Positions 1 through 42,079 of a stretch of 42,079 nucleotides of DNA are shown here, piece by piece. Made by a program: the position numbers and the translations under genes. The notes beneath the pieces are model-generated. The model saw only the letters and a list, made by a program, of their open reading frames with translations. It did not search any database and was not told where the DNA came from. The first letter of the stretch is position 1. Each line of letters opens with the position of its first letter. The stretch comes from a virus. The stretch lies in the IMG/VR virus record IMGVR_UViG_3300031616_000014, positions 1 to 42,079 of that record; one strand, given 5' to 3'.

Positions 1-127
1 CATCAGACACCCCAGGAGTCGGAAAGTGAGTAACGCCTTCAACATGATGCCGAAGTGTGACCGTTGCGGCCGGTTCATGCATTGCGCTCCAGGCAGCTCC
101 TACGCGATGCGGTGTTCTGGCTTCCCT
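1..127. repeat. Terminal direct repeat, copy 1 (identical to 41953-42079); the contig closes into a circle of 41,952 unique bp
   Basis: Compared base by base: 1-127 (catcagacacccc...ctggcttccct) recurs exactly at 41953-42079 and runs to the last base of the window. Confidence 0.97.
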
Positions 128-1748: not shown

Positions 1749-2009
1749 ATGACAGCACCGGCACCCGAGACGATCGAGCGCGAGCAGGGCAAGCTCTACC
1801 TGAGCGATGCCGAATTGATCCGTCGCCTCGGCGTGCCGGAAAAGCACATGCGCAAGATCCTGCCGGGGCTGGAATCCAAGTATGGTTTTCCACGGAAACA
1901 ACCGCTTTTCGGGGATCGACGCTATTGGCCGGCGGTGAAAGCGTGGTTGGATAAGCGCAACGGGATCACGATGAGCCCGGAAGTGGCACGGAGAGAGAAC
2001 AATGACTGA
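1749..2009 (+). CDS. xis: Excisionase-like / winged-HTH DNA-binding protein
   Basis: ATG 1749 is an internal Met of the track ORF 1677-2009. It has an HTH-like LSDAELIRRLGVPEKHMRKIL. It lies immediately upstream of the integrase and overlaps its start by 8 nt. Confidence 0.5.
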   Translation: MTAPAPETIEREQGKLYLSDAELIRRLGVPEKHMRKILPGLESKYGFPRKQPLFGDRRYWPAVKAWLDKRNGITMSPEVARRENND

Positions 2010-3270
2010 ACGCACGCCGCCGCGCGTCGATGGCGCTCCTGGTCTAGTCTGGCGCGAACGCAAGAAGGGATGGGTTGCCTACTGGCAGGCCCGCAGTGAC
2101 CTGGTGAAGAGAGGCTACGCCCCCGGCGCCGTGCGCTTGTGGGAAGGTGCTGAGCTGGACGAGATCGACGCGCTGGAGATTGCCTCGCAGTGCAACGAAC
2201 ACCAATCGGTCATGCTGATCTGGGGTCGCGAGCGAGATGCCGGCGGCAAGCTTATTCCGCTGGTCACCATTGGCAACCTAATCGACAAATACCAGAACGA
2301 TCCGGATTCGGCGTTCCATAAGAAGCGCTATGAGGCGCGGCAGGGTAAGGCAGCGCTGCTGAAGCGGATCGACAAGCGGTTTGGTGACGTCATGCTTTCC
2401 GACATCGCCGGCCGGATGATCCTGTCCTGGTATAAAGAGTGGAGCGACAACGGGCAGAAGGTTTCCGCGGGCGGGGCTTTCATCGCCACCCTGCGAACCC
2501 TGTTCCGGTTCGGTGCCGGCCTCTTGGATGATCGGGAATGCGCCCGGCTGGCCGAGACCCTATCCAGCCAGAGCTACAAGGGGACTAAGCCGCGGGAGGT
2601 CGCACTGTCGGCTGACCAGGCCACAGCCATCCGGGAGAAGGCCCACGAGCGCGGCTGGCCGTTCATCGCCCTCGCCCAGGCCATCCAGTTCGAATGCACC
2701 CTGCGCCAGCGGGACGTCATCGGCGAGTGGGTTCCAGTGAAAGAGCCCGGCGTGTCGGACGTCATCCAGACGAAGAAGTTCAAGGGCGAGAAGAAAACCA
2801 AGAAGTGGATCACTGGCCTCCGGTGGGAGAGGATCGACGAGAACCTGATCCTGCGCCACGTCACCAGCAAGCGGAGCAAGACGATCGTGGTCGATCTGAA
2901 GCTGGCGCCAATGGTCTTGGAAGAGTTCCAGGCCATGTTCGGCTCCATCGATCGCGCCACCATGCCCGCCTCTGGCCCGGTCATCCTGTGCGAGGTCAAT
3001 GCCTGGCCCTACTACAATACCGAGTTCCGCAGGAAGTGGCGGAAAGTGGCGACCGCGGCCGGCGTGCCCAAGGGCGTCAAGAACATGGACACCAGGAGCG
3101 GCGCGATCACCGAGGCCGCCGAGGCCGGCGCCGATATGGAGATGGTCAGGAAGGCCGCGACCCATAGCAACGTCGCGCAAACACAGAACTATTCCCGGAA
3201 CGATGCCAAGGCAACAGCCGAGGTGATGGCCCTGCGGGTAGCGCGTCGAAACAAACCAGCGACAGAATAG
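2002..3270 (+). CDS. int: Tyrosine recombinase / phage integrase
   Basis: 422 aa. The C-terminal catalytic region carries TRSGAITEAAEAG ... ATHSNVAQTQNYSR (R, HxxR-type and Tyr nucleophile context). It is followed by repeated arm-type motifs. Confidence 0.9.
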   Translation: MTERTPPRVDGAPGLVWRERKKGWVAYWQARSDLVKRGYAPGAVRLWEGAELDEIDALEIASQCNEHQSVMLIWGRERDAGGKLIPLVTIGNLIDKYQNDPDSAFHKKRYEARQGKAALLKRIDKRFGDVMLSDIAGRMILSWYKEWSDNGQKVSAGGAFIATLRTLFRFGAGLLDDRECARLAETLSSQSYKGTKPREVALSADQATAIREKAHERGWPFIALAQAIQFECTLRQRDVIGEWVPVKEPGVSDVIQTKKFKGEKKTKKWITGLRWERIDENLILRHVTSKRSKTIVVDLKLAPMVLEEFQAMFGSIDRATMPASGPVILCEVNAWPYYNTEFRRKWRKVATAAGVPKGVKNMDTRSGAITEAAEAGADMEMVRKAATHSNVAQTQNYSRNDAKATAEVMALRVARRNKPATE

Positions 3271-5891: not shown

Positions 5892-6098
5892 ATGAAAATC
5901 TTCTGCCTATTTCTGGCTTTCTGTGCGCTCGCCTTCACACATTGGATATCCTTCATGCAAGGGCGCGCCGATGTGATGACAAAAACCACAGTCGAGTTTG
6001 GCGCTCCTTACTATCGTGGGCCATTCTTCGGAACGTGCCAGACCGAGGTCTATTTTAACAATGAGCGGGGTATCGCCTGCGCCACCCTCCCCCGTTGA
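5892..6098 (+). CDS. Small membrane or secreted protein
   Basis: The hydrophobic N-terminus MKIFCLFLAFCALAFTHWISF looks like a signal peptide or membrane anchor. 68 aa. Confidence 0.45.
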   Translation: MKIFCLFLAFCALAFTHWISFMQGRADVMTKTTVEFGAPYYRGPFFGTCQTEVYFNNERGIACATLPR

Positions 6099-6331: not shown

Positions 6332-6532
6332 ATGATCGAACGCACGTATGACGACGGGTATCATCTCTGGTTTGCTTGGCGCCCCGTCCTGCTCAAGTGG
6401 GAGGGCGGGTACGGCAACCCCTTAAAGCGCGACTACAGGGTGATCTGGCTGCGCTTCGTCCACCGGAAGCGGACTGCCAAAGGAACCTACTACTCAGTAT
6501 TTGAGGGCGGAAAACCTGAGTATCGCTTCTAA
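6332..6532 (+). CDS. Hypothetical protein (last gene of the plus arm)
   Basis: 66-aa track ORF. Its stop codon overlaps the stop codon of the convergent 784-aa gene at 6529-6532. Confidence 0.45.
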   Translation: MIERTYDDGYHLWFAWRPVLLKWEGGYGNPLKRDYRVIWLRFVHRKRTAKGTYYSVFEGGKPEYRF

Positions 6533-8883
6533 GGCACCACGCCCTGATCAGTCCGAAGCGTCATCGTGAACTGCGGAAGTGTCCATCCTGTGGGGAAGGA
6601 TGAGCCGAACACACTCGGAGTTACACCGAGATACAGCCACGCGGTGCTAGGCGGATAACCACCAACTCCGCCTGATGGTGCTGAGATTGTGTCACCAGAA
6701 CAGACACCAGGTGATCCGTTACATGTCACACCGCTCGGCGTAATGACGCGCGTTCCAGCCTGCTTCAGATTGATCGTGGGAAACCAATCGAACACAGTCC
6801 ACGTCGCCTGATCCATCATGTTGTTGTGGAATTGGCCGGTCGGATTCAGTACGAGCGAACCTGAGCCAGTCGCTGCTACCATCACATCTACCGTCAGACT
6901 GACGATCTTCCCCATGCCCGCGATCGTCCCAGCATTGGACGTGTTGACTGTCGGAGCGTAGCTGCGATAGCCGAACTGCCCCAGCGGGGCGAGCGCAGTG
7001 GCTCCGTTTTGAATGTTGACGCCTATAACCTCCGGTGAGCCGGTACAGGCGTCGCAAGTAAATTGAGGAGCTGGATGCACTCGCCACACCGGCGAATATC
7101 CGGCTATCCCCGGAAAGCCACCTGCTTGGTTCGTTTGTGTGTAGACGTTTGTTGGGTCTTGTGTCTGCGCCAACGTCTGCAACAGGCCCACTGATGTGAA
7201 ACCAGCAGTAGCTAGATAGACGTTCCCACCTGGGACGAATATGCGATGAGGCGGTCCATTGGCGACCACGTTATCCGTATTGGCTACCGTGATGACGCCA
7301 CCGCTCATTGTATAGGTGCTGCCCGCGAAATTCTGGGACAGGCCACCCGTTTGCTGGAAATCGGTCACATCGCAGCGGGTGCAAACCAATGGCCCAGTTG
7401 AAGCGCCATTGGTCCATGCGCCCGGGCGAAACAAGTCGAAGTGTGTGTCTGTGATCTGCGAGTTTTTCGCGGTCCCAAATGCGCCGCCGATGTTTGAGTT
7501 CTTCAGGATGAGATTGTCAACCGACGAACTCTGGAAGTCCATCCGTCGCATGACACCCCCGACACCGTTGCCGGTTAGGCCGTCGATGTCTAACGTCGTG
7601 ATTAGCTTATCAACTTCCCAGCCTGGGGAGGCGTTGATATTCAAAGCTGAGTTTCTGATTGTGAATGTTTCGCCGCCAGAGGGCACCGTCCCGTTGGGGC
7701 TGTTCCACGTCACGTTGCGGAACGTAGCATTGCGGATTTTAGCATAAGTTTGACCACTGTCGGAGATCGTAAGACCGCGATATTCGACTGTGGCGTTCCA
7801 AAATGGATGAAGGGCGTAGATCGTTGCTGGGCCGCCTTGATCCAATTGGCCTACACCACCGGCAAAGTATTCCGGCCAAGTATCGAGCAAGGTACTGGTC
7901 AGTGGCTTGTCAAACGTGATGGTGGCTGTTCCCGGGCATCCAACAGTATTATTGCAGACGGCTGTAACGACAGCGTAGGTGAAGAACTGATGGTTGGACG
8001 GGACGCCATAGTTCTGATTGTACCCGGACTGGATGTCCATGCCGGAAATCATCACTGGCGTGCCCGTGGTGAAGCGGCTGATATATCCAGCAGCAAACGA
8101 CGCTGCAGTAAGCGTGACAGTGGTTGCACCTATCGATGCGGATTGGATGCGAGCGGATCGCCCTAGTGGTGCCGTTAGCCCTTGCTCCAATTGAGCCAGC
8201 GCCCCCCAATTTATGGCGGACCCGCCGACGCTATCTATCGTAGCCCCGGTACCCTCAACAATGAGGTTATTGATGCCCGCAAAAAGATATCCCCCAAAGT
8301 TTAACCCCCCGATTGGTTGCGTAATTTGCTGATTGGTTCCGACCCAGCAAACGCTTCCATTCGGGACGGTCAGAACAACCTGATTAGCCCCCTGATTGGC
8401 TTGCGCCCATGTATTGAACGCCTTAAATGCGGGAGCATCGTCACTTCCGTAGGTGATGGATTTTGATACTGACGTGACTTGCGTGCCCATAGTAGGCGTC
8501 ACTACCACCACCTGCTGGCCGCCGCCAAAGGCGCCAACTGAAACGATCGTGCCTGTGTAATCGCCGCCGCCGTTGCCAACACCCGGAATTGCGATGGCCT
8601 TGCCAACGTCACCAGGGCTGGTGAACTGATTGGAGAATACGGTCAAGTTTCCGCTGAACGGCGGTGGCGTGCTGATAGTCAGCGTTACTGTTTGCTTGTC
8701 TCCGTTACATGTAGCAGCCGGACTGGCACAAGGGCCAGAGGCAGAGGCAACTCCCGTAACGATGTTGCAGGCGAGTTGCGGAGTAGCAGTAAGCGCTGTC
8801 TGGAATATAGCAAATGCTGCATAACACGCGCTCGCTGAAACCATCAGCCCAGCAAGCGCAATAATCCACTTCCGCATTTTCAT
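6529..8883 (-). CDS. Exported beta-helix protein, tailspike/depolymerase-like (784 aa) with a Sec signal peptide
   Basis: N-terminus MKMRKWIIALAGLMVSASACYA/AF (n-h-c regions, AxA-type site). ITYGSDDAPAFKAFNTWAQAN resembles the N-cap of pectate-lyase-fold tailspikes. The remainder is long and rich in G, T, N and S. The ATG overlaps the upstream stop (ATGA). Confidence 0.6.
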   Translation of the reverse strand: MKMRKWIIALAGLMVSASACYAAFAIFQTALTATPQLACNIVTGVASASGPCASPAATCNGDKQTVTLTISTPPPFSGNLTVFSNQFTSPGDVGKAIAIPGVGNGGGDYTGTIVSVGAFGGGQQVVVVTPTMGTQVTSVSKSITYGSDDAPAFKAFNTWAQANQGANQVVLTVPNGSVCWVGTNQQITQPIGGLNFGGYLFAGINNLIVEGTGATIDSVGGSAINWGALAQLEQGLTAPLGRSARIQSASIGATTVTLTAASFAAGYISRFTTGTPVMISGMDIQSGYNQNYGVPSNHQFFTYAVVTAVCNNTVGCPGTATITFDKPLTSTLLDTWPEYFAGGVGQLDQGGPATIYALHPFWNATVEYRGLTISDSGQTYAKIRNATFRNVTWNSPNGTVPSGGETFTIRNSALNINASPGWEVDKLITTLDIDGLTGNGVGGVMRRMDFQSSSVDNLILKNSNIGGAFGTAKNSQITDTHFDLFRPGAWTNGASTGPLVCTRCDVTDFQQTGGLSQNFAGSTYTMSGGVITVANTDNVVANGPPHRIFVPGGNVYLATAGFTSVGLLQTLAQTQDPTNVYTQTNQAGGFPGIAGYSPVWRVHPAPQFTCDACTGSPEVIGVNIQNGATALAPLGQFGYRSYAPTVNTSNAGTIAGMGKIVSLTVDVMVAATGSGSLVLNPTGQFHNNMMDQATWTVFDWFPTINLKQAGTRVITPSGVTCNGSPGVCSGDTISAPSGGVGGYPPSTAWLYLGVTPSVFGSSFPTGWTLPQFTMTLRTDQGVVP

Positions 8884-9827
8884 CCACCGATGATCCGGCC
8901 GCCCGCGCCGCCGCCGGAAGGCAGAGAAATCGTAATGCCGGTGGCCTGACCTACATTCATAGAATTTGTCGCCGCGAACGTACCAGCACCCGTAAAGGCC
9001 AAGCCAGAAATGGCACAGTAATCAGCCGTGAAGTTATTTCCTGAAGATATGGTTGCTTGGCCATTGGACGGGTTGTTGTTCGTGAGTAGGCACTGATTAG
9101 TTGAATTGGCCGAGATGTTGCTCAGTGTGGTGATGGTCGTCGTAATACCTTGTTGGAATTGAACGCGGTTTGGGCCTGTGATTGTTAGCGTGTTGATCCC
9201 AATAGCTGTGGCCCCTGACAACTGAAAGAACCTGTCAACGCTGCTATTAACCGTGATGTTGTTGTAGGTTTTGGATGTCCCTGCACGAAACTCTCTCTGC
9301 CCCGATGCTGTACCAGTAAAGGCAACCGTGGAGCCATTGGCGTTGAGCGTGAAGTTGGTCGACCCGGCTGCAGTCCAAATAGCGGTAGCACCGGAGAGCG
9401 TCCAAGTGCCATTGCCCATATTCAGAGTTCGGTTGCCGGCGCCAGTGCTGATGAAAGCAGTTGTGGAAGAGGAAAGCGTGACGTTGTTGTTGTTGGTTGC
9501 AAAGTCCAGCGTGCTCGGACCCGTAAAAGCACTCATATCGAGCGAGATAATTGCAACAGTAGTGTTAACCGTGACTGTGCCAGTGCCAGATGACGCATCG
9601 AACGTGGCGGAGTCACCAGTCGAAGGTGAACCTCCGGTACCACCCCCCGCACATGTGGTGCCGCCACCCGACGCTGAGGCCCATTTTATGCCGCCAGCGC
9701 CACCGCCGCCGGTGTTGGTGCCATCCCAAGAGGCTGTACCACCGACCCAAAAACACGTCACAGCATACGCAGCATTCGGCGCCAAGAATGCGAGCGCGAG
9801 AAGGAAAAGGCCGAAGAGTTTGTTCAT
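8880..9827 (-). CDS. Exported beta-helix-like repeat protein (315 aa) with a Sec signal peptide
   Basis: MNKLFGLFLLALAFLAPNAAYA/VT. The mature start CFWVGGTASWDG...GDSATFDASSGTGTVTV resembles the opening of autotransporter-associated beta-strand repeat proteins. Rich in T, N, G and S. Confidence 0.6.
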   Translation of the reverse strand: MNKLFGLFLLALAFLAPNAAYAVTCFWVGGTASWDGTNTGGGGAGGIKWASASGGGTTCAGGGTGGSPSTGDSATFDASSGTGTVTVNTTVAIISLDMSAFTGPSTLDFATNNNNVTLSSSTTAFISTGAGNRTLNMGNGTWTLSGATAIWTAAGSTNFTLNANGSTVAFTGTASGQREFRAGTSKTYNNITVNSSVDRFFQLSGATAIGINTLTITGPNRVQFQQGITTTITTLSNISANSTNQCLLTNNNPSNGQATISSGNNFTADYCAISGLAFTGAGTFAATNSMNVGQATGITISLPSGGGAGGRIIGG

Positions 9828-9831
9828 GGGA

Positions 9832-10728
9832 TCACCGCGTCACGTAGGTGATGGAGCCGGTGAGCTGCGTCGCGGCGGATTGCGCGATGCAGAGGTCGTT
9901 GGCGTTGGTTGCGGTTTGGAGAACCTGGAATCCGCCGCTGCCTCTCGAAATGCCTCCATTTGCCGCAAAATTGTATCCGGTCGCGGCCGTAGCTACTGAG
10001 GTGCCCGCGCCCACGACTGCAACTGCGCTGGTTGCACAGGTCGTGCCGGTCGTTGCTTCAAACACGGCAACGCTATCGGCAGCATTATTCGTCAACTCGT
10101 ATGCGCAGACGTAGATTTTTTTGGCTGAGACGCCAGTCACAATGACCTTTACCGCAGCCGTCGCAAGGGTGATCGGGACCGTTGTTTTGACCGATGTTTG
10201 ACAAGGATCTCCGGCCAGCCCCAGCATGTTGGTGCCGCCCGACGCATCAAGCACACCTGCATATGTAGCATTCGCCGGAACGGCCGCGCCTGTCGCGCCA
10301 TGGCCCCATAGGGCGTTAGCGGTCTGGTTAGAAGCAATGACAATCGGCGAACTATTGGCCATTGTAGCTTGGCCTGCCGCTAGCGTGTTCGTCACGAAGG
10401 CATTGACGCCGGGAACGTTCACCGCACCGGGCGAAGTGCCGTAGGCTGCCATTGCACCAAGGGTGCCACCGGCCCAAGAGGTGAAGCCGTTGATCTGAGC
10501 GGCGAAAGTGCCGTTACCAATGACTGTAATTCGGCCGGAAGCATCCACAGCCAAACACTGCGCCACAGTCGTATTGTCGCAAAGTATGTGGCGCGGGTAG
10601 TAAACGCTAGTTGCGTCCTTTGCACCGAAGACAAGACCGCTGCCTGCCGTAGCGCCGTAGTTGTCAGCCGCCGATGCTTGTGAGGCAAGCCCGGCAAGAA
10701 TTGCGATCGAAAGGAATATCTTGCGCAT
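9832..10728 (-). CDS. Exported protein (298 aa) with a Sec signal peptide
   Basis: MRKIFLSIAILAGLASQASA/AD. RBS GAGG 8 nt upstream. Mature part rich in A, T and G. Confidence 0.6.
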   Translation of the reverse strand: MRKIFLSIAILAGLASQASAADNYGATAGSGLVFGAKDATSVYYPRHILCDNTTVAQCLAVDASGRITVIGNGTFAAQINGFTSWAGGTLGAMAAYGTSPGAVNVPGVNAFVTNTLAAGQATMANSSPIVIASNQTANALWGHGATGAAVPANATYAGVLDASGGTNMLGLAGDPCQTSVKTTVPITLATAAVKVIVTGVSAKKIYVCAYELTNNAADSVAVFEATTGTTCATSAVAVVGAGTSVATAATGYNFAANGGISRGSGGFQVLQTATNANDLCIAQSAATQLTGSITYVTR

Positions 10729-10732
10729 GGTA

Positions 10733-10939
10733 TTACCTCAGCATGGGCATCACACAGCCCGTTGAAAGATCGATGGTGCCGTCACAGCCGGCGGGTGGTG
10801 AGGGAGCAGTGCCGCAAATGGCCGGGCCAGTCAGAACGGTGAGACCCCAGCCCTGACAGGCGTATCCAGTCAGGCCCGCCGCCCTCGCAGCGCCACCCAG
10901 CGCCAGCATTGCAAGCAGAAAGAGCAGCGCGCGTTTCAT
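10733..10939 (-). CDS. Small exported Cys-containing protein (68 aa)
   Basis: Internal ATG of the track ORF 10733-11254. MKRALLFLLAMLALGGAARA/AG. The mature part of about 48 aa has 4 Cys. The ATG overlaps the upstream stop (ATGA 10936-10939). Confidence 0.5.
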   Translation of the reverse strand: MKRALLFLLAMLALGGAARAAGLTGYACQGWGLTVLTGPAICGTAPSPPAGCDGTIDLSTGCVMPMLR

Positions 10940-11295
10940 GGCTTCGCTGTCCCTATGACTGCTTTCAATGTGGATGTGGTGGCCGGCGTGATACCTGCCA
11001 GATACCAAGTCGAGCCAATGCCGGGCTGCTGAAGCACGATGAAGCCGCCGCCGGGAATGTAATAGCTGGAGGTCGTGGCCGTGATGGAAGAGGAAGATCC
11101 GATATTGTAATAGGCTTCCTGCGACGTGATATTGTATAAGATCACAACAGGTCCGCAGGACGGCAACACCACGTTGGCCGTGCTGGTCGTCAAAGCCCGC
11201 GAGACCTGTCCGCAGGGCGTCAACCCTGCATATTGGGCGTTGGCCCCGCCACACAAGGCGAAAAGAATCGCCAGTGAGCCAAATAGTCTAAGCAT
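10936..11295 (-). CDS. Exported protein (119 aa) with a Sec signal peptide
   Basis: MLRLFGSLAILFALCGGANA/QY. The start lies inside the portal's last codons (8-nt overlap ATGCTTAG). Confidence 0.55.
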   Translation of the reverse strand: MLRLFGSLAILFALCGGANAQYAGLTPCGQVSRALTTSTANVVLPSCGPVVILYNITSQEAYYNIGSSSSITATTSSYYIPGGGFIVLQQPGIGSTWYLAGITPATTSTLKAVIGTAKP

Positions 11296-13733: not shown

Positions 13734-13850
13734 TCATTTCCGGCGGTCTTTCCGCCATTCCAACCATTCCTGAACGGCCGCCCCAATTGAGAGAATTGCC
13801 AGTGCGACCATGAGACCCGCGAGCCAATAGAGCCACCAAAGGTTGCTCAC
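13734..13850 (-). CDS. Tiny membrane protein (38 aa)
   Basis: Hand-translated from a GTG overlapping the upstream stop (GTGA): VSNLWWLYWLAGLMVALAILSIGAAVQEWLEWRKDRRK. One TM helix and a basic tail. Confidence 0.3.
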   Translation of the reverse strand: MSNLWWLYWLAGLMVALAILSIGAAVQEWLEWRKDRRK

Positions 13851-14149
13851 GAGTACTCGCCGTCTACGCCCTTGCGATAGCCCGTGATGAAGCCTTCCCC
13901 ACGCCGCATGTCGGAGATATCTCTTTGCGCCGTGGTGAGCATCTTGACGTGGTTGGTGACGCGCTCCTCAAGGATGCTGACGCGCTTGTCGTGATCTGCG
14001 GCCGTATCGATCTTCTTCTCAACCGCTTCAAGGCGCTGGGCAAGAAGATCAATGCGCCCGCCAATCCGAGTGAAAGCGCCCACAAATCCGATAAGCAGAA
14101 CGACGGCATTTAGGATCGCCCCGTAAGTTATCTCAGGGTTGAATGTCAC
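13847..14149 (-). CDS. Membrane-anchored coiled-coil protein (100 aa), lysis-cassette associated
   Basis: GTG start. TM helix AILNAVVLLIGFVGAF followed by a heptad-like region LAQRLEAVEKKIDTAADHDKRVSILEERV. It sits directly after the spanins. Confidence 0.5.
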   Translation of the reverse strand: MTFNPEITYGAILNAVVLLIGFVGAFTRIGGRIDLLAQRLEAVEKKIDTAADHDKRVSILEERVTNHVKMLTTAQRDISDMRRGEGFITGYRKGVDGEYS

Positions 14150-14216
14150 AACGTCCGGATCTCCTAGCTACCGCCGAGGCTAGGCCCACCCTAGCTCCTT
14201 TAAGTACACCTCACAT

Positions 14217-14489
14217 TTATTGGGCCTTCTCAATGGCGCGACATGCGTCTCGGAATTGCCCATAATCAGTCACCATTTCCTGCACCGCTGATCCTGACTT
14301 CGGCAGCTCCTTTGCTGCCTGCTTCTGGAAGTCCGCCGTGTAACTCCGCAGCGGCGGGCATCGCGATCTAAAAATTACCGTCTGACAGCCTTCGAGTGGT
14401 GTCATCAACAGTGCGACGCTCAGCAAGGACACTGCCGGCGCGGCTCTGAGCGTCGATTTCCTCGCGCTGTGACTCCTTGATAACTTCAT
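14217..14489 (-). CDS. Outer-membrane spanin (o-spanin) lipoprotein candidate
   Basis: It starts inside the i-spanin gene in another frame (overlapped architecture). Signal AAPAVSLLSVALLMTPLEG/C has a lipobox-like LEGC. Confidence 0.5.
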   Translation of the reverse strand: MKLSRSHSARKSTLRAAPAVSLLSVALLMTPLEGCQTVIFRSRCPPLRSYTADFQKQAAKELPKSGSAVQEMVTDYGQFRDACRAIEKAQ

Positions 14490-14613
14490 CTCGACCTCGC
14501 TGCTCAGCAGCTTTCGTCACGTCTCGCACAGCAAGGCGTATCAGGCCGAAGATGCCAGCCACGATGGCTGACGCAACAGCGGCCACGATACCCCATGTCT
14601 GTATGGTGCTCAC
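14368..14613 (-). CDS. Inner-membrane spanin (i-spanin, Rz-like)
   Basis: N-terminal TM WGIVAAVASAIVAGIFGLI followed by a charged helical periplasmic part. Positioned after the holin. Confidence 0.6.
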   Translation of the reverse strand: MSTIQTWGIVAAVASAIVAGIFGLIRLAVRDVTKAAEQRGRDEVIKESQREEIDAQSRAGSVLAERRTVDDTTRRLSDGNF

Positions 14614-14903
14614 TGTGGGGCAGTTACGCTCGGAATGCCCGCAGCAACAGCCGCCTGCTTCGGAACAACGGTGATGCCGTTACCAGCCGTCTCCACGATG
14701 GATTGCGCTTTGGCAGTCTGCGAGTTCACGGCGGACTGGAACAGGACCGAAACCGCTGCATATAGCGTGGCAGCGATGCCAGCCGCATCACCCTTGAGCC
14801 AACCGGCGCCAACGGCGTACATCACCCCAGCGAGAATCCCCTTTTCGATGAGACCTCCGATGGGGCCGGCAAACGTATTGAGGATCGTTAGAATAGCCTT
14901 CAT
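14610..14903 (-). CDS. Holin candidate
   Basis: ATG 14903 is an internal Met of the track ORF and overlaps the endolysin stop. 97 aa with 2-3 hydrophobic helices (GILAGVMYAVGAGWL, AAGIAATLYAAVSVLF). Lies between endolysin and spanins. Confidence 0.55.
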   Translation of the reverse strand: MKAILTILNTFAGPIGGLIEKGILAGVMYAVGAGWLKGDAAGIAATLYAAVSVLFQSAVNSQTAKAQSIVETAGNGITVVPKQAAVAAGIPSVTAPQ

Positions 14904-15541
14904 TTTGTCTCTCCGGTTTTCAAAGCTTTTTTCCACTTCACAAGCCACGCAACGCGATCTTCAATCCCCACCGTTCCGCCGTTCAGCTTCTTGGTTACGC
15001 GAAGAATGTCGTCCACCTTCGCGTAAGGAAGACAGCCGCAATTGATGAAATCCGACACACCGCATTCGAGGAAGTAGCGCGGGTCGATCAGATACTCGGG
15101 GTGGTTGACCACATCTATCTTCGTTGCCTTCGCAACGCGCTCATAGCCTTCGCGTCCAGTGGTCTGTGACGCGCCGCGTCCCCTGAAATTGTAGCCATCA
15201 TCAGACCCAGGACGGTTGCCCATGCGCCCATTGTAGACCTTGTTCGCGAGCGCCCGAGGATTGCCAGAGAACGGCGCAGCGCTTGCCATCGTTGGAAACC
15301 GCGAGGGCCAAACCTGTATGATCCGCTTTGCGGTGTAGTTCATGTTTTCGACGACATCCCGCCCAGCGCCGCATTCGTGGCTGATCTGCGCCATGACGTG
15401 AGCCACCAGCAACGGCGTATCGATCGGGCCGTATTTGGCGAACACGGAAGGCGCCCATGTCGCAACCCCATCGCGCAGTCCGGGGACTTTCTTGTCCCCA
15501 TCCGGCCATAGATTGAAGAGTGCGTTGACGAATGCCATCAC
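14900..15541 (-). CDS. Endolysin, glycoside hydrolase family 19 (chitinase-like) fold
   Basis: AHVMAQISHECGAG...VENMNY...YNGRMGN...YNFRGRGASQTTGREGY matches the GH19 catalytic Glu-Glu region and the GRG.iQlTg motif. Confidence 0.85.
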   Translation of the reverse strand: MMAFVNALFNLWPDGDKKVPGLRDGVATWAPSVFAKYGPIDTPLLVAHVMAQISHECGAGRDVVENMNYTAKRIIQVWPSRFPTMASAAPFSGNPRALANKVYNGRMGNRPGSDDGYNFRGRGASQTTGREGYERVAKATKIDVVNHPEYLIDPRYFLECGVSDFINCGCLPYAKVDDILRVTKKLNGGTVGIEDRVAWLVKWKKALKTGETK

Positions 15542-17163: not shown

Positions 17164-17700
17164 CTACTGTTCTAGAGAGAGCGTCGCTCTCTCACTTGGT
17201 TTCGTGTAATTCAGGCGAGAGGCTTCATGCGGACAGACGCCACCATTGTGGTAGCGACCTGAATTGCAGTTGAAGCAGAGGATGCGGAACGACTTTGGAA
17301 ATCCATTATCGACAAGCCACCGGAATAATGTGCTTCCTGGAGCAACCTCTTTGCGATGCTCGGCTCCATTGTCGTCTGCATGATCGATCGTCAAAAACTT
17401 CGGTTCACTCTCTCCACAGCATGCGCATTCGTGTCCGTAGTGATCGAAAACCACCTTTTTCCACTTTTGATAATGGCGCCGGCGCGTCTCCGCTTGGTAC
17501 TCCGGGTTTTTCCGATATTTTATGCGATCATAAATTTTCAGCCGATCGCTGTTCTTTTCGCGCCAAGCAGATTGATAGCCGTTGCGTTCTGCACTCCAGC
17601 AAGGAATGCAAAACTTCCGGAAATAAAACTTGCCACCCTTCATCTTCTGAAAGCGCGCTAGTTCCTTCTCCTGCTCGCAGGATTTGCAAATGCCAATCAT
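17164..17700 (-). CDS. HNH endonuclease (free-standing, homing-type)
   Basis: CACCGESEPKFLTIDHADDNGAEHR...LCFNCNSGRYHNGGVCPH gives the HNH/zinc-finger signature. RBS GGGAGAA. Visibly lower GC than the flanking structural genes. Confidence 0.8.
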   Translation of the reverse strand: MIGICKSCEQEKELARFQKMKGGKFYFRKFCIPCWSAERNGYQSAWREKNSDRLKIYDRIKYRKNPEYQAETRRRHYQKWKKVVFDHYGHECACCGESEPKFLTIDHADDNGAEHRKEVAPGSTLFRWLVDNGFPKSFRILCFNCNSGRYHNGGVCPHEASRLNYTKPSERATLSLEQ

Positions 17701-27555: not shown

Positions 27556-28590
27556 TCACGTGTTGTAAAGGACGCCCTGAAGGAAGGCGTTGGAAAGGGT
27601 CATGTTGCCGGCCCAGCCGATCAGCTTCACCATCGCGTCCTGGTTGACGGAGAAGCGGTCCGGATCAAGCGGAACCATGTTGCGACGGGAATGCGGGCGC
27701 CAATGGATGTACTTGGTATTGAGCATGTACATCGTATTGGCCGGCGCACCGCCGACAGCGGAGGTACCACCAGAGGTCTGGTAGGGCAGCGGATCGGCTG
27801 CGTAGCCCTGGAAGCCACCGTCCAGCACGACATCAGCCGTGTTGTACTTGAGCGACTGGAAGCCCAGCGTTCCATGCTCACCGGCGCCGTTCTCGGACGC
27901 GATGCGCTGGATCGCCTGAAGCGACTGCCAGTAGAACTTGTACATGTTGTTGTCCGCCACGATCAGATCCGGGGAGTCACGACCACGAACCTGAAGCAGC
28001 CACAGCGAATCCATGTAGTTCTGGATGTTCGCAGCGGTCGCCGCCGCACCGCCGTTGGTGACAGCGCCATAAGCCTGGTTCTGCCAGAACGTCCATGTCG
28101 CACGATCGATGCCGCCGACGATGCCCGAACCGGGCGAGGACGAGACGAGCAACTGAACCCCGTTCACGGAGCCGGTCACGGTGCCGTCGCCATAGACGCC
28201 CTGCGACATGCCGTTCATGAACGTATCTTCGGCGTTCTCAATCCGGCTTTCGAGCAGGTCGATGATCGCCTCTTCGCCCGAGTTCTGGAGTTCTTCCAGG
28301 CCCGAGATCGAAACCGCGACCGCCGACTGGCGGATTGGAAATTCCGCAGCCGAGAAGGTCTGCGACGGCGCGATGTTCAGGGTCTGATAGCCCGAATACC
28401 ACTGGAACGTCTGGTTGTTGGCGTAGTTGAGTTCCTGGACGATGGTACGGCCACCGCTGAAGGTCTTCATCCGGCCGCGCTTGGAAAGACGAGCCAACAG
28501 CGCATTGTTGCGGCTCATGTTGTCTGCGAGCTGACCCGTGCGATTCCGTAGGGTCGTGGTCACGATTTCAGAAAGATTCGGAAAGGCCAT
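27556..28590 (-). CDS. Major capsid protein (HK97-fold family)
   Basis: 344 aa, directly after the scaffold gene. N-terminal LRNRTGQLADNMSRNNALLARLSKRGRMKTFSGGRTIVQELNYANNQTFQWYSGYQTL fits the conserved opening of a podovirus/BPP-1/epsilon15-type coat family as I recall it. Confidence 0.8.
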   Translation of the reverse strand: MAFPNLSEIVTTTLRNRTGQLADNMSRNNALLARLSKRGRMKTFSGGRTIVQELNYANNQTFQWYSGYQTLNIAPSQTFSAAEFPIRQSAVAVSISGLEELQNSGEEAIIDLLESRIENAEDTFMNGMSQGVYGDGTVTGSVNGVQLLVSSSPGSGIVGGIDRATWTFWQNQAYGAVTNGGAAATAANIQNYMDSLWLLQVRGRDSPDLIVADNNMYKFYWQSLQAIQRIASENGAGEHGTLGFQSLKYNTADVVLDGGFQGYAADPLPYQTSGGTSAVGGAPANTMYMLNTKYIHWRPHSRRNMVPLDPDRFSVNQDAMVKLIGWAGNMTLSNAFLQGVLYNT

Positions 28591-28606: not shown

Positions 28607-29719
28607 TTAGGCCCGGTTCCTCTCCTGCACCTCGTTCATAGCGGCAAGGATTGATCCTCGTACACCAGCAGCGCTCTTGTCAGCTCCATTCGCCGGAACG
28701 CCTTGACGCGCTCGGGGAGCCGGGGAGACGGCAGCGAGACGGGCTTTCGCAGCCGCCTCTTTCTGTGTTTTTTCGAACTCGGCCTTGCGCTTTTCTTCCT
28801 GCTCTCGCTGGCTCGCCTCGAAAAGCTCGTCATTCATCCGGAGCGCCTTTTGATAGGCAGCTTCCAGATCGTTCTGAGCGACCACGCCAGCCTGCATGAG
28901 TTGCCCCATGGAGACGCGCAGTTTTTCGAAGTGCGGATGGTCTTTCGCGAAAGAGGAAATTTCAGAAGCCACACGGTTCTGTTCCGCCAACTGTTGAGCG
29001 TTGACGAATCCGGTGACGGTCTGCCTAAGCTGGCCTACTTCGTCTAAAACAGGTTTTAGGTGGTCCGGGATCGCCTCGCCGCCATCTGAGGGCGCGGGAG
29101 ATTGTCGGGCGAATTGTGAAAGGTCAACGCCATAGGTGTGGGCAAGATTGTGGAATGCCTGCAGCTGCGTCTGAGGATTGGCGAAACTGGCTTCCCACTG
29201 GAAAAGGCGGCTGATGGCCTCTGCGTCATTCTGCACCCCGAATTGCTGAAATCGGGAGCGGCTTGGCGCTAACACTTGCTCTATGGCTTCATACTGCTTG
29301 GTCTTTTCCGAATAGCTCTTGAAGCCATTCGATACTTCTTCTTCCCGCTTGGCGACATCCTGTCTGATGGGATGATCGGGCGGAAGAGAATTGAAAAATT
29401 CCTTGGACTGTTGCGACCAGCCCGGCGGTGGCCCCACAGGTTTTGACGCCTGCGGGGCTTGCTCTGCCGGAGCGGTCGCGTCCCTGTCCACTGGGACTTC
29501 TTTGGCCGCAGCGGGAGATTCCGCGCTGACCTGTTTCGCCTTGAATTTGCCAGTCTCATCGCGCTCGCGGTCGCCGACTTCCTTCACAGCGCTGTTGAGC
29601 GCCTCGCGAATGGATAGCGGCTTGTCCGGTGTCGAGGTATCGCGGCCAATGTCACCCCCAGACGATTGAGCAATATCCGCGCTCTCGGCTGCATGGGTGT
29701 CGGCAAGTTCGTCAGCCAT
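28607..29719 (-). CDS. Scaffolding protein
   Basis: 370 aa, acidic and helical, Ala/Glu/Gln-rich. Located immediately upstream of the capsid gene, behind an AT-rich intergenic region. Confidence 0.65.
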   Translation of the reverse strand: MADELADTHAAESADIAQSSGGDIGRDTSTPDKPLSIREALNSAVKEVGDRERDETGKFKAKQVSAESPAAAKEVPVDRDATAPAEQAPQASKPVGPPPGWSQQSKEFFNSLPPDHPIRQDVAKREEEVSNGFKSYSEKTKQYEAIEQVLAPSRSRFQQFGVQNDAEAISRLFQWEASFANPQTQLQAFHNLAHTYGVDLSQFARQSPAPSDGGEAIPDHLKPVLDEVGQLRQTVTGFVNAQQLAEQNRVASEISSFAKDHPHFEKLRVSMGQLMQAGVVAQNDLEAAYQKALRMNDELFEASQREQEEKRKAEFEKTQKEAAAKARLAAVSPAPRARQGVPANGADKSAAGVRGSILAAMNEVQERNRA

Positions 29720-29873
29720 ATTCTATCCCGATAAGAATAAATCGGAACATAAGGCTGATTTGGCTGGCGATTAAAGATTAGTTTGAGAATTACAGAGTTT
29801 TACACACTATCGAATACTTGGAACGATTGATTGAACCGCGAATTGTTCGTGCTCACACAACGGAGATTTGCTC

Positions 29874-30077
29874 ATGACCGCAGCTACCGCAGTGAAAGAC
29901 AAACCAGAATCCAAGGATCGCCCCGGCAGCGCCAATGAAGCGCTCGCAGCCGTTAACGAGAACCACACGTGGGTCAAGGAGCCAGAAGATCTGACCACAA
30001 GCCCCGGCCTTCAGCGCGCCGTTCAGGAAAACCGTGACGCTATTCAGGCGCTAGCTGACTACATCGACAAGAAGTGA
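29874..30077 (+). CDS. Small hydrophilic protein on the opposite strand within the late region
   Basis: ATG 29874 lies 9 nt after GGAG (29861-29864). 67 aa. Divergent from the scaffold gene and convergent (2-nt gap) with 30080-30382. Confidence 0.4.
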   Translation: MTAATAVKDKPESKDRPGSANEALAAVNENHTWVKEPEDLTTSPGLQRAVQENRDAIQALADYIDKK

Positions 30078-30079
30078 GG

Positions 30080-30382
30080 TCATCGGTTCTTTAGTTCGTA
30101 AATCGTCCGCTTGATATCCTCAACCCGCTGGCGCTTATCCAGCTTGATCGGCTCGCGCGGCCTGATCGGCTCGTTACCAAGCTCTACCATGCCTGCAGCT
30201 CTGGTTTCAGCCGAAAAGGCCCGCTTGCTGTCGATCACCTTCCCCGTGCCGTGGTGCTTCAAGGGCGCCATGGTGTCGGAGATGACGGCCACCGACCATG
30301 GCTTGGTGTCGTGAACGAGGTGGCGCTCTACCATGCCGTTTTCGTTAGCGTTCGGGTGGTTGGGGCGATAGATCCAGCTCAT
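30080..30382 (-). CDS. Hypothetical protein
   Basis: 100-aa track ORF. One-nt TAATG coupling to the upstream ORF. Confidence 0.55.
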   Translation of the reverse strand: MSWIYRPNHPNANENGMVERHLVHDTKPWSVAVISDTMAPLKHHGTGKVIDSKRAFSAETRAAGMVELGNEPIRPREPIKLDKRQRVEDIKRTIYELKNR

Positions 30383-30567
30383 TAGCGCTTTCTCGTTTTT
30401 TCAGCGGCTATGTCGTATAATTCTGTTTCAGTCATTTTCCGATTTAGAACTTGTTCGCCAAGCCTTATTGCTGACCAGCCATAGGCAAGGGTGAGTTCTT
30501 GCATCCCCCGCTCCAATGCATCTCGGCGCAATGCCTTTATCGCTTCATAGACATTCTTCTCGCTCAT
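30382..30567 (-). CDS. Hypothetical 61-aa protein
   Basis: ATG 30567 (MSEKNVYEAIK...) overlaps the terL stop (ATGA). Confidence 0.5.
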   Translation of the reverse strand: MSEKNVYEAIKALRRDALERGMQELTLAYGWSAIRLGEQVLNRKMTETELYDIAAEKTRKR

Positions 30568-32069
30568 ATCCTCGCCCTCCTCTGCGGCGCCTGCTTCTCC
30601 CACAGATCGTCCAATGAAACCTCGTTGTGCGGACCAACGCCCAGGATTTTCCCAGGCGTATGCTTCACCACGTCCTTGATGTACGGACGGCTCATGCAGG
30701 CGTAGCGGACCTCATCAGGCGCGTGGTCCTCGTTCTCGGTGTCTACGTCCTCCGGCTTGTTCTGGTCATGCTGGAGCGCCGGCAGCGTTCTTATGGTGTC
30801 TCGGCAGGTGGAGAAGAAATAGATTCCAGGCCGTTCCCCATCACCCAGGAGACGCGCTCGTACCTGATCCCATCCACCAAGAGCGCCTCGGGCGGAAACT
30901 CGGGCGTTGTCGGCACGACGGAAGAATACCTTCCGGGTTGCCATTCGCTCACCGATAGACGGACCGCCGTCACTCGCAAAGGCAGCGGGGTCGAGTACCC
31001 CATAGGAAATAGGACTTTGACCATCTAACCCTCTTGGCTCATCTGTCTCTCTCGCTATGATGCCGTCTGCTACGTCTTCGGCGGGTAGTTTGATGCCCAC
31101 ATTGGGAGCCGACGCCCCATACCATTCCCGGTAACGGACGAGAGCACCTCTAGGTAGGCTTCGTAAGCCACCTTGTTGACCCAGATGAAAGTCGTCTCCG
31201 ACAACTGCCCACCATCCGATACTAAAGGGACGAGCACTCCCCCAATCGCCCGATCGGAAGCGGAGCCAAGTTGCTGGAATTTGAAACGGCGCGATGACAT
31301 GCTTAGCCTCCGAGAATTCAGGGAAGAACGCCCCCTCGATCACTGACCAATCGCCCTCAAGCCACGCGCGAACAAGCTGAGCATTGCCTACCATCTGCAG
31401 GTTCGCAACGTATTCCGAGCCGAGGTAACGGTTATCTTGCAGCTTGGATGGGATATAGATGCGGTCGCGCTTTACCTGCTGTTTGGTCCATGGGTTTTCG
31501 TAGGTCTCGCTGATCGTTTTCCAGCCCAGAGGAGCCGGGTCGATATAACGGGCGCGAACCCATTGATGCCCCGGCCCGCCAGGGTTGCCGGTAGCCCTAA
31601 AACCACAAGGTATTCCATGCCCTGACCGAAGCGTTGCCATGAGCTTAAAAATAGGGCTTGGAGATGGAAAGGTTCCAATCTCCTCAATATAGACACGCGT
31701 ATGAGAACGCCCCTGATATGCATCCGCATCCGAGTCGCGATCCAAGTATGCGAACTGGAATCGCGAACCATTCGGGAATCGCCACAGCTTCTCTTGCTCA
31801 TGAAACACCGCTCCCAACGGTTTGAATAGTTGCCGGCTGCGTTCGATCGTGTCCACCAACTGCGTCCGCTCGCGCCGGAACATGATCGCGTTGCAGTGCT
31901 CGCCATATTGATCCTGATGGCTTACGAACTCGCCCAGCATTCCGTCGGTCTTGCCGCCGCCTCTCGCACCACCAAAGAAGATTTCGAAGATCGGACAAGC
32001 CAACAAAGCTTCCTGGGGGCCCGGTTGAGGCCCCCAGATCACGGTGTATTCGGTAGACGCTCTAACCAC
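30564..32069 (-). CDS. terL: Terminase large subunit
   Basis: Walker A FGGARGGGKTDG. Also FRRERTQL, YIEEIGTF (Walker B-like) and GNPGGPGHQWVRARYI, followed by a C-terminal nuclease region (DWGSARPFSIGWW...). 501 aa. Confidence 0.9.
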   Translation of the reverse strand: MVRASTEYTVIWGPQPGPQEALLACPIFEIFFGGARGGGKTDGMLGEFVSHQDQYGEHCNAIMFRRERTQLVDTIERSRQLFKPLGAVFHEQEKLWRFPNGSRFQFAYLDRDSDADAYQGRSHTRVYIEEIGTFPSPSPIFKLMATLRSGHGIPCGFRATGNPGGPGHQWVRARYIDPAPLGWKTISETYENPWTKQQVKRDRIYIPSKLQDNRYLGSEYVANLQMVGNAQLVRAWLEGDWSVIEGAFFPEFSEAKHVIAPFQIPATWLRFRSGDWGSARPFSIGWWAVVGDDFHLGQQGGLRSLPRGALVRYREWYGASAPNVGIKLPAEDVADGIIARETDEPRGLDGQSPISYGVLDPAAFASDGGPSIGERMATRKVFFRRADNARVSARGALGGWDQVRARLLGDGERPGIYFFSTCRDTIRTLPALQHDQNKPEDVDTENEDHAPDEVRYACMSRPYIKDVVKHTPGKILGVGPHNEVSLDDLWEKQAPQRRARI

Positions 32070-41952: not shown

Positions 41953-42079
41953 CATCAGACACCCCAGGAGTCGGAAAGTGAGTAACGCCTTCAACATGAT
42001 GCCGAAGTGTGACCGTTGCGGCCGGTTCATGCATTGCGCTCCAGGCAGCTCCTACGCGATGCGGTGTTCTGGCTTCCCT
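41953..42079. repeat. Terminal direct repeat, copy 2 (duplicate of 1-127)
   Basis: Exact 127-nt identity with the window start. It re-presents the RBS and 5' part of the ORF annotated at 26-247. Confidence 0.97.

Follow-up and report, generated by a model that had tools for sequence, protein, structure and literature searches.

A post-portal cassette of fibre- and tailspike-like genes with predicted Sec signal peptides in a temperate podovirus

Five consecutive genes downstream of the portal gene of a temperate podovirus encode proteins that open with predicted Sec-type signal peptides and have features of phage fibres and tailspikes. The genes, g119, g68, g298, g315, and g784 (Table 1), belong to IMG/VR virus record IMGVR_UViG_3300031616_000014 (positions 1 to 42,079); this whole stretch of 42,079 nucleotides is called the window. 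We propose, with somewhat less than even confidence, that the five genes are the exported version of a mobile, accessory fibre/tailspike-like phage module whose products meet the virus particles at lysis. The original prediction, made from the sequence of the window alone, had called exported proteins inside a late operon unexpected. This agrees with the literature, in which we found no description of such proteins and no report of signal peptides on tail fibres or tailspikes.

Rechecking of coordinates and overlaps returned the five minus-strand open reading frames (ORFs), their N-termini, and their junctions exactly as they had been predicted. The end of the portal gene runs 8 nt into g119 (11288-11295). 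Within the cassette, two neighbouring pairs overlap in an ATGA (10936-10939 and 8880-8883), and the other two pairs are 4 nt apart (10729-10732 and 9828-9831). The g68 start is an internal ATG within a longer mechanical ORF; the short form is backed by homologues of 58-59 aa in loci L007, L008, and L011. Gene calls in all metagenomic loci cited here are mechanical ORF calls. A consensus scan of the cassette and its surroundings found promoter- and terminator-like sites no more often than shuffled expectation, and none terminator-like on the minus (coding) strand. Overlapping starts and stops and the lack of an excess of such sites support the predicted late unit with the portal; the most fitting reading is that the five genes form the last part of the late operon and are translationally coupled to the portal.

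Export signals and their signal-less counterparts

N-termini were scored with a plain heuristic that looks for a net positive n-region, an uncharged hydrophobic core, and small residues at -3/-1; membership was defined by a basic n-region, a hydrophobic h-region of 8-15 residues, and AxA within ~15-35 aa of the start. The scorer flags all five cassette genes and one of the ~61 other ORFs in the window (Fisher p = 7e-7). The K/R n-region, hydrophobic core, and AxA persist in nearly all full-length proteins of the 120 g298 homologues listed (at least 295 found), and nearly all full-length entries among the 120 listed homologues of g784 (at least 156 found) retain the signal. A signal is also kept by 79 of the 120 listed g315 homologues (at least 327 found), and the same type of leader is present in 29/30 retrieved homologues of g119. 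The leader sequences diverge widely among homologues while the n-h-c/AxA pattern persists. Judged by the heuristic together with this conservation, the Sec-type signal peptides predicted for all five proteins appear to be genuine, conserved signals of the Sec/signal peptidase I (SPase I) type, and we infer that the proteins are actually exported and cleaved.

A lipoprotein signal, cleaved by signal peptidase II and defined here by a lipobox [LVI][ASTVI][GAS]C that closes the h-region and whose +1 Cys is conserved, was considered and rejected. The g784 leader reads ..SASAC/YA, but its Cys is replaced in many homologues (..SSAYA/AF, ..GAAQA/AF). The g119 leader contains FALC, with L at -1, and the other three leaders lack Cys. 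The single signal-like ORF elsewhere in the window (5892-6098, plus strand) lies near the convergent end of the cassette and encodes 68 aa with 4 Cys, starting MKIFCLFLAFCALA..

Each family examined for it has signal-less members, and the mature N-termini that follow the predicted AxA sites are the N-termini of these signal-less homologues. About a quarter (32/120) of the listed g315 homologues lack a signal and start M-A-[SAN]-R-F-W-V-G-G; signal-bearing homologues read AxA/A-[SAN]-R-F-W-V-G-G or AxA/VTCFWVGG. Signal-less g298 proteins start M/L-ADNVVVTAGTG, signal-bearing ones continue after the cut as ..A/ADNALIVTPGTG, and the window protein reads ASA/ADNYGATAGSG. For both g315 and g298, removal of the initiator Met and cleavage of the signal would yield the same mature N-terminus. 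The predicted cleavage site is supported by these natural signal-less variants.

The signal-less state extends to whole cassettes that occupy the same genomic position. A prophage of Bradyrhizobium sp. SZCCHNRI1073 (L027) contains a signal-less set of a small Gly-rich ORF, a g298-like gene, a g315-like gene, a gene for an 847-aa protein, and a g784-like beta-helix core, together with a gene for a tail protein homologous to p678 of the window (phrog_5880 is matched by both). The same kind of signal-less set, in the same gene order, is found in L031. Searches (tblastn) with three of the four L027 signal-less cassette proteins gave short metagenomic matches only. Of the loci with at least two family members, 12 have signals on all of them, 5 on none, and no locus is mixed, and the four nearest neighbours are signal-positive in 29/40 cases around signal-positive g315 genes versus 4/82 around signal-negative ones (Fisher p = 6e-15); these concordance statistics are inflated by shared ancestry, as cassettes are inherited as blocks and the events are not independent. 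Since the families cross between signal states together with their partners, the all-or-none signal state argues for a shared compartment and probably a shared assembly.

Signal-bearing forms tend to be richer in cysteines. The mature proteins contain 2 (g119), 4 (g68), 6 (g298), 4 (g315), and 12 (g784) Cys, versus none in six cytoplasmic virion proteins of the window. Across the g315 family, the mean is 4.0 Cys in signal-positive versus 1.7 in signal-negative members (p = 1e-7), and the signal-less g119-like protein P0441 lacks both invariant Cys of its family. We infer disulfides in several of the mature proteins. Observations that some signal-positive g315 proteins with an 'ASRFWVGG' start hold 0-2 Cys suggest an order of events, in which export seems to have come first in evolution and disulfides later.

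Protein architectures and relatives in other phages

Pfam and PHROGs gave no assignment for any of the five cassette proteins, and family profiles of g784, g298, and g315 found no relatives among PDB sequences. Structure prediction was more informative for g784. Its AlphaFold2 (AF2) monomer model, built from a 55-sequence alignment, has a predicted local distance difference test score (pLDDT) of 91.9 and a predicted template modelling score (pTM) of 0.91. From N- to C-terminus, it shows a beta-sandwich, a helix cap, a long right-handed beta-helix, and further beta-sandwiches. Foldseek relates the model to the Klebsiella K1 capsule lyase (7w1c, E 1e-7), GH110, and the AP22 gp54 and phi297 gp61 tailspikes; the matches, which include 7w1c, GH110, 4y9v, and 4ru5, have E values of 1e-7 to 6e-5 and probabilities of 0.97-1.0. 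Models of phage depolymerases and fibres were matched in BFVD. Thus, the description of g784 as pectate-lyase-fold-like holds at the level of the fold, and no Pfam family (Pectate_lyase_3, Beta_helix, or similar) was found at E<=0.1. Invariant residues in the family alignment include E401, D403, K404, D326, D457, and six Cys; E401/D403/K404, D326, and D457 are compatible with an active site. Homologues with a start codon almost all open with a signal peptide. By its model, g784 probably degrades polysaccharide as a lyase or hydrolase, or binds in the manner of a tailspike.

The three genes closest to the portal look like a split fibre, since the g119 domain is fused to g298-type fibres elsewhere. 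g119 comprises a signal peptide (aa 1-20) and a 99-aa beta-rich domain in which C28 and C47 are invariant in the alignment; its family has 151 cluster representatives at E<=1e-3. The domain occurs free-standing with a signal, or N-terminal to g298-type fibres such as P0381, in which it is joined via a Gly-rich linker and a shaft to a g298-type jelly-roll knob. g68 consists of a signal peptide and a 48-aa mature peptide with its four Cys. It always lies just before a g298-type gene, as seen immediately upstream of the g298 homologues in L006, L007, and L011, and the same slot in L027 and L031 is filled by signal-less Gly-rich counterparts (MNFGRLG.., MSFGRLG..). Behind its conserved mature N-terminus (ADNYGATAGSG), g298 has a middle part modelled with low confidence (the first ~150 residues), followed by a C-terminal 8-strand jelly-roll with conserved Cys (residues 151-278, pLDDT >90). 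The model suggests a fibre- or shaft-like middle part and a C-terminal knob. No function was read from its Foldseek jelly-roll matches, which are all weaker than E 1e-3.

g315 is repeat-rich, starts with an FWVGGT..W module (A-x-R-F/Y-W-V-G-G-T..W), and is probably a beta-solenoid. A likeness to autotransporter-associated beta-strand repeats (PATR, PF12951), suggested originally, was not borne out: g315 has no Pfam match, and a scan of 40 family members gave only noise. The g315 N-terminal module also heads signal-less phage proteins of 270 to >3000 aa. In the isolated siphophage P19250A, the gene for one of these (925 aa) comes immediately behind those annotated 'host specificity protein J' and 'tail fiber protein'; a PHROG search with the long signal-less proteins gave no match. 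The g315 family has a conserved C-terminus, ..PSGGGGG.RIIGG, and its stop codon often overlaps the start of a g784-type gene.

The order g68-g298-g315-g784 recurs in IMG/VR contigs L008, L011, L013, L016, and L020, mostly within runs of 5-9 consecutive signal-bearing ORFs and sometimes with two g784 paralogues. The backbones that carry the cassette differ: L011 has a P22-type portal and Terminase_3, L006 a T7-type connector plus GP7 and Bbp16, and L007 a P22-type coat, while L009 and L010/L032 are T7-like. The cassette follows the portal in the window, in Podoviridae sp. ctLwi270, and in L009, precedes TerL in L008, L011, and L016, follows head genes in L006 and L007, and follows lysis genes in L010, L027, and L031, in the last two next to the integrase arm. 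By this distribution, g68-g298-g315-g784 is a syntenic cassette that appears to move between unrelated podovirus backbones. Portal adjacency is not universal, yet it appears to be ancestral in the backbone lineage of the window because L030, L091, and L066 have a portal gene followed by a g315-like gene. In L010, a cassette member matches 'minor tail protein' PHROGs.

ctLwi270 (MW202554.1; L003/L029) was the single match in a tblastn search with the five concatenated proteins. Four signal-bearing ORFs directly follow its portal gene (L003 5970-11470), again with an 8-nt overlap, and lie between it and the scaffold/capsid genes. Their products are an 846-aa protein with the g298 C-terminal domain, a protein of 197 aa, a ConA-like lectin/glucanase, and a protein resembling polygalacturonase. 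A DNA polymerase is annotated in this record, an integrase is not. Two further loci are recorded as side observations. The late region of L007 contains a signal-bearing ORF of 242 aa (7339-8067) whose N-terminus, by eye, resembles alphaproteobacterial outer-membrane proteins of the Omp25/31 type. A satellite-like island of ~10 kb in Bradyrhizobium sp. AUGA SZCCT0182 (JAFCLY010000005.1; L025 5712-15723) comprises genes for a VapE-like primase, an HK97-type capsid protein, a cold-shock domain protein, a signal-less g315-like protein, and an integrase.

Signal-type leaders also occur, independently of the cassette, at a classical fibre locus. In a T7-like clade (L032, L039, L040, and 13 further contigs), they are present in 16/16 homologues of the gene at the gp17 tail-fibre position, which directly follows the genes for gp14-, gp15-, and gp16-like internal virion proteins. 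A variable leader is followed by the conserved motif (Q/A)xPPPVPALPDTERRTSY; the N-terminal 190 aa are conserved, the C-termini of 250-1000 aa are divergent, and full-length copies hold 8-21 Cys. A conserved N-terminus with variable C-termini is the classical layout expected of a receptor-binding protein. The protein has a part in common with annotated tail fibres from phages of Leptospira, Bradyrhizobium, and Sinorhizobium, and searches of Pfam, PHROGs, and PDB gave no match. One family member (L120 5902-7854) has a twin-arginine-like leader (MTTSRRRFLPRLAAVSF...AIA/QVPPP), which suggests export by the twin-arginine translocation (Tat) pathway instead of Sec. A similar case is annotated in the isolated temperate Bradyrhizobium phage ppBdUSDA122-1 (OP596612.1; L133 3540-7621), in which the 'tail fiber protein' WAX24263.1 begins with MKLQRLLGAIGAVVMSVSTALA/AEQ. 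A hydrophobic leader likewise opens WAX24264.1, encoded just before it, and both follow a large 'tail protein'. Signal-like fibre N-termini are unmentioned in published Bradyrhizobium phage papers, and a literature search by the name ppBdUSDA122-1 found no paper.

Possible fates of the putatively exported proteins

In the reading that we favour, the five genes at the end of the late operon would be transcribed and translated along with the portal. SecYEG would take each precursor across, and SPase I would cleave it after AxA. The mature proteins would fold in the periplasm, several with disulfides, as capsids, portals, and tails form in the cytoplasm; attachment-like proteins are thus apparently made apart from the cytoplasmic particles. 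The two pools would mix only once the inner membrane and the wall are broken down by the products of the holin, endolysin, and spanin-like genes just upstream. Docking on finished particles would follow, by the fibre parts g119, g68, g298, and g315 and by the putative beta-helix enzyme g784. They would form a second set of receptor-binding/depolymerase appendages, with the ordinary tailspike p538 as the first. Because this signal-less tailspike is present, the cassette would be accessory and not the sole receptor-binding protein. Before lysis, the exported proteins may already act on the envelope glycans of the cell itself.

Attachment to finished particles as accessory appendages is put forward tentatively; docking appears somewhat likelier than its absence because fibre-type parts and exact N-termini are conserved in the exported forms, because 4-9 genes switch compartment together, and because the sole fibre candidate of the T7-like clade carries a signal. 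Final addition of tailspikes or fibres works in vitro for model phages, so attachment after the compartments mix is physically plausible. A broader claim, that a considerable group of soil and freshwater tailed phages, including Bradyrhizobium phages, route fibres and tailspikes through Sec (occasionally Tat) in a two-compartment assembly completed at lysis, is possible but doubtful. Several observations weigh against docking. We know of no precedent for docking after lysis in tailed phages, and none was found in the literature. The normal, signal-less p538 makes the cassette dispensable for the basic particle. The cassette sits on backbones with a P22-type portal, a T7-type connector, or Tb-type genes without an obvious matching adaptor, a variety that fits free proteins as well as virion parts. 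g298 has only generic structural matches (phage cement/knob proteins, nucleoplasmin, Ena fibres), and hhalign of the gp17-position proteins against the T7 gp17 N-terminus aligns the expected motif weakly (probability 0.65%, E 0.09). Some signal-less g784-like proteins are also Cys-rich, so the cysteine argument is statistical only, and a g315-like gene resides within the small satellite-like island L025.

A close rival reading is credible, if short of an even chance: the proteins may be exported and never virion-bound, acting as periplasmic or released lectin-like binders plus a beta-helix depolymerase, all derived from receptor-binding proteins. Such a set would strip or mask the surface polysaccharide of the infected cell late, digest the surrounding extracellular polysaccharide (EPS) after lysis, limit superinfection and loss of progeny on debris, and open the matrix for spread. 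Real signals, a separate signal-less tailspike, unrelated backbones, and variable cassette positions all fit this alternative. The beta-helix fold is common to monomeric secreted GH110 glycosidases and tailspikes, the g784 helix has invariant acidic and basic residues, and its monomer is modelled as a compact, confident multidomain enzyme; the ctLwi270 cassette adds lectin/glucanase and polygalacturonase-like proteins. Bradyrhizobium, the only named host genus, makes abundant EPS. However, parts that a soluble enzyme would not need are retained, namely the g119 domain with its Gly-rich linker, the shaft/knob fusions, and the exact g315 N-terminus; 4-9 genes that have or lack the signal together suggest one assembly more than independent enzymes, and the only fibre candidate in the T7-like clade has a signal. 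The hydrophobic N-termini could also be uncleaved anchors or assembly helices of ordinary cytoplasm-side fibres, which would be tethered to the inner membrane until lysis or buried in the tail. The proteins do look like virion fibres, and to our knowledge tailed-phage assembly is cytoplasmic in every studied case. This is nevertheless highly improbable in view of the canonical AxA followed by conserved mature N-termini equal to those of signal-less homologues after Met removal, leaders that drift freely yet keep n-h-c features, one homologue with a twin-arginine-type leader, and the enrichment of Cys in signal-bearing forms.

A reading of the genes as morons or auxiliary genes that only chance has put in the late region is unlikely, too; their lysogenic-conversion or carbohydrate-active products, of the kind called auxiliary metabolic gene ('AMG') proteins, would be secreted by the lysogen to benefit the host, through surface remodelling or nutrition. 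In favour of this reading, the phage is temperate, the cassette closes the late region, a place where morons accumulate, and it adjoins the integrase arm in L027 and L031; about 5% of carbohydrate-active enzymes (CAZymes) of soil prophages are reported to have signal peptides (PMC13507307). Against this stand the starts and stops that overlap the portal and one another, with no promoter or terminator sites of their own above shuffled expectation in the consensus scan, which also led us to reject a lom/bor-type moron. T7-like contigs hold the same cassette within their late operons, as does ctLwi270, where it is flanked by the portal and the scaffold/capsid genes, and no CAZy-type Pfam domain was found. 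Three further candidates were rejected. A lysis function is not needed, as the phage has its own endolysin and holin-/spanin-like ORFs just upstream. A lipoprotein or superinfection exclusion (Sie)-type barrier would not fit proteins that lack a conserved lipobox and are large, with fibre and enzyme folds. A pilus or chaperone-usher system found no usher-, chaperone-, or sortase-like match (Pfam, PHROG) in the cassette or in the scanned proteins of related loci; that the cassette has no usher, chaperone, or barrel partner was likewise part of the original prediction. Of the three explanations offered there, fibre parts on an unusual assembly route or an exported depolymerase set are favoured by the fibre/tailspike architecture, the signal-less orthologous cassettes, the identical mature N-termini, and the all-or-none signal state; a small-protein superinfection barrier is unlikely.

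Among known systems, the closest are the tailspike/depolymerase modules of podoviruses and similar phages (P22 gp9; K1F/K1-5/SP6; CBA120 TSP1-4; AP22 gp54; the Klebsiella K1 lyase). These share with the cassette a right-handed beta-helix with flanking beta-sandwiches, fibre or spike genes in a row, mosaic exchange, conserved N- and variable C-termini, and a position at the border of the late module. The cassette probably works like, and derives from, podovirus tailspike/fibre modules. It differs in that every member has a predicted cleavable Sec-type signal and most have several Cys, that its place on the virion is putative, and that it has no sequence match in Pfam, PHROGs, or PDB and no recognisable domain for particle binding. 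At the sequence level, the cassette therefore falls outside any described family and is set apart by its predicted export signals.

Other phage proteins use the same export route for different ends. The Lom/Bor-type morons of lambda are likewise exported, and their genes lie among or next to the late structural genes of a temperate phage. Each gene encodes one small outer-membrane protein or lipoprotein, has a promoter and a terminator of its own, and is expressed by the prophage, unlike five portal-coupled genes for proteins of up to 784 aa with fibre/enzyme folds that also occur in T7-like contigs. Sec-dependent lysis proteins (signal-arrest-release endolysins, T4 antiholin RI, spanins) are late, depend on host Sec, and act in the periplasm; RI reportedly has a cleavable signal peptide. 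They are small effectors or regulators, in contrast to the fibre, jelly-roll, and beta-helix folds of the cassette, and the window has a complete-looking lysis block of its own. The pIII and pVIII proteins of the filamentous phages (Ff) are established virion proteins with cleavable signals that are assembled outside the cytoplasm, and those of filamentous phages are the only such proteins known to us. Their particles are single-stranded DNA filaments extruded across the envelope without lysis, and they are unrelated in sequence, fold, and particle type. Receptor-blocking or -destroying products (T5 Llp; free depolymerases) may share a role with the cassette, namely to hide or eliminate the receptor at the infected cell and around it. 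Llp-type proteins, however, are small lipoproteins, whereas the cassette has no lipobox (the leader Cys of g784 is not conserved), and known free depolymerases stay cytoplasmic until lysis.

If particles carry the cassette proteins, the rule of cytoplasmic completion of tailed virions would have a widespread exception, lysis would be an assembly step as well as a release step, and disulfide-stabilised receptor-binding proteins in environmental phages would be explained. If not, the proteins would constitute a large unannotated family of glycan-binding or -degrading proteins exported by phages late in infection, with a bearing on superinfection control, the escape of progeny from EPS-rich hosts such as rhizobia, and depolymerase discovery. 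Either way, the families are left unannotated by current resources despite hundreds of homologues between them. Such genes would be misread by pipelines in which a signal peptide rules out a structural role or a structural position rules out export. Homologues that naturally differ in having or lacking the signal offer a ready experimental handle.

Genome and neighbouring late genes

Table 1. Coordinates of the cassette genes, of other features of the window, and of gp17-position genes in T7-like contigs
Feature	Position	Strand	Description
g119	10936-11295	-	N-terminus MLRLFGSLAILFALCGGANA/QY; cut ANA/QY
g68	10733-10939	-	N-terminus MKRALLFLLAMLALGGAARA/AG; cut ARA/AG
g298	9832-10728	-	N-terminus MRKIFLSIAILAGLASQASA/AD; cut ASA/AD
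g315	8880-9827	-	N-terminus MNKLFGLFLLALAFLAPNAAYA/VT; cut AYA/VT
g784	6529-8883	-	N-terminus MKMRKWIIALAGLMVSASACYA/AF; cut CYA/AF
Portal, 788 aa	11288-13654	-	phrog_12082, E 1e-165
Lysis block	13847-15541	-	immediately upstream of portal
Transmembrane (TM) + coiled-coil ORF	13847-14149	-	from translation; putative spanin role
Lipoprotein-like ORF	14217-14489	-	lipobox-like LEGC; putative spanin role
Holin-like 2-TM protein	14610-14948	-	TM segments in translation; putative holin role
Endolysin, soluble	14900-15541	-	phrog_181, E 1e-48; N-terminal TM absent in translation
p538 tailspike/fibre, 538 aa	15538-17154	-	between tail and lysis genes, the usual position; no signal peptide by scorer
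Major capsid protein (MCP)	27556-28590	-	preceded in operon by scaffold-like gene
TerL	30564-32069	-
Integrase	2002-3270		opposite strand to late operon
gp17-position gene, L032	12985-14559		signal-type leader
gp17-position gene, L039	13915-17466		signal-type leader
gp17-position gene, L040	13128-16814		signal-type leader
gp17-position gene, L118-L131			signal-type leader

A 127-bp direct repeat at the termini of the window (1-127 and 41953-42079) identifies it as a complete, circularly assembled genome of ~41.95 kb. The virus is a temperate podovirus, kin of the Brucella Tb and Bradyrhizobium ppBjS10J-1 phages. Its MCP is 55-61% identical to those of ppBjS10J-1 and metagenomic relatives, and its portal 29-40% identical to the portals of ppBjS10J-1 and Brucella Tb-type phages. 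A single long minus-strand operon comprises replication genes, TerL, a scaffold-like gene and the MCP gene, tail genes, an HNH endonuclease gene, the tailspike gene, the lysis block, the portal gene, and the five cassette genes. Over its C-terminal 284 aa, p538 has 36% identity with the 'tail spike protein' of Pseudanabaena phage Pam5 (E 2e-32). Since the endolysin is soluble and lacks an N-terminal TM segment, a large-hole holin is implied, which would let the compartments mix.

The portal gene sits after the lysis block at the end of the late operon and not between TerL and the scaffold gene (28607-32069). In L030, L091, and L066 the order is TerL, portal, g315-like gene, and then scaffold and MCP; since these relatives hold the portal between TerL and scaffold, the portal and cassette block appears to have been relocated to the operon end in this genome. 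Neither blastn of the cassette region against phage records nor a scan of 185,579 species genomes for the host gave a match, and the only hint at the host is two Bradyrhizobium entries among the g315 homologues. An HNH/endonuclease VII-like gene (17164-17700, minus strand) is inserted between the tail genes and the p538 gene.

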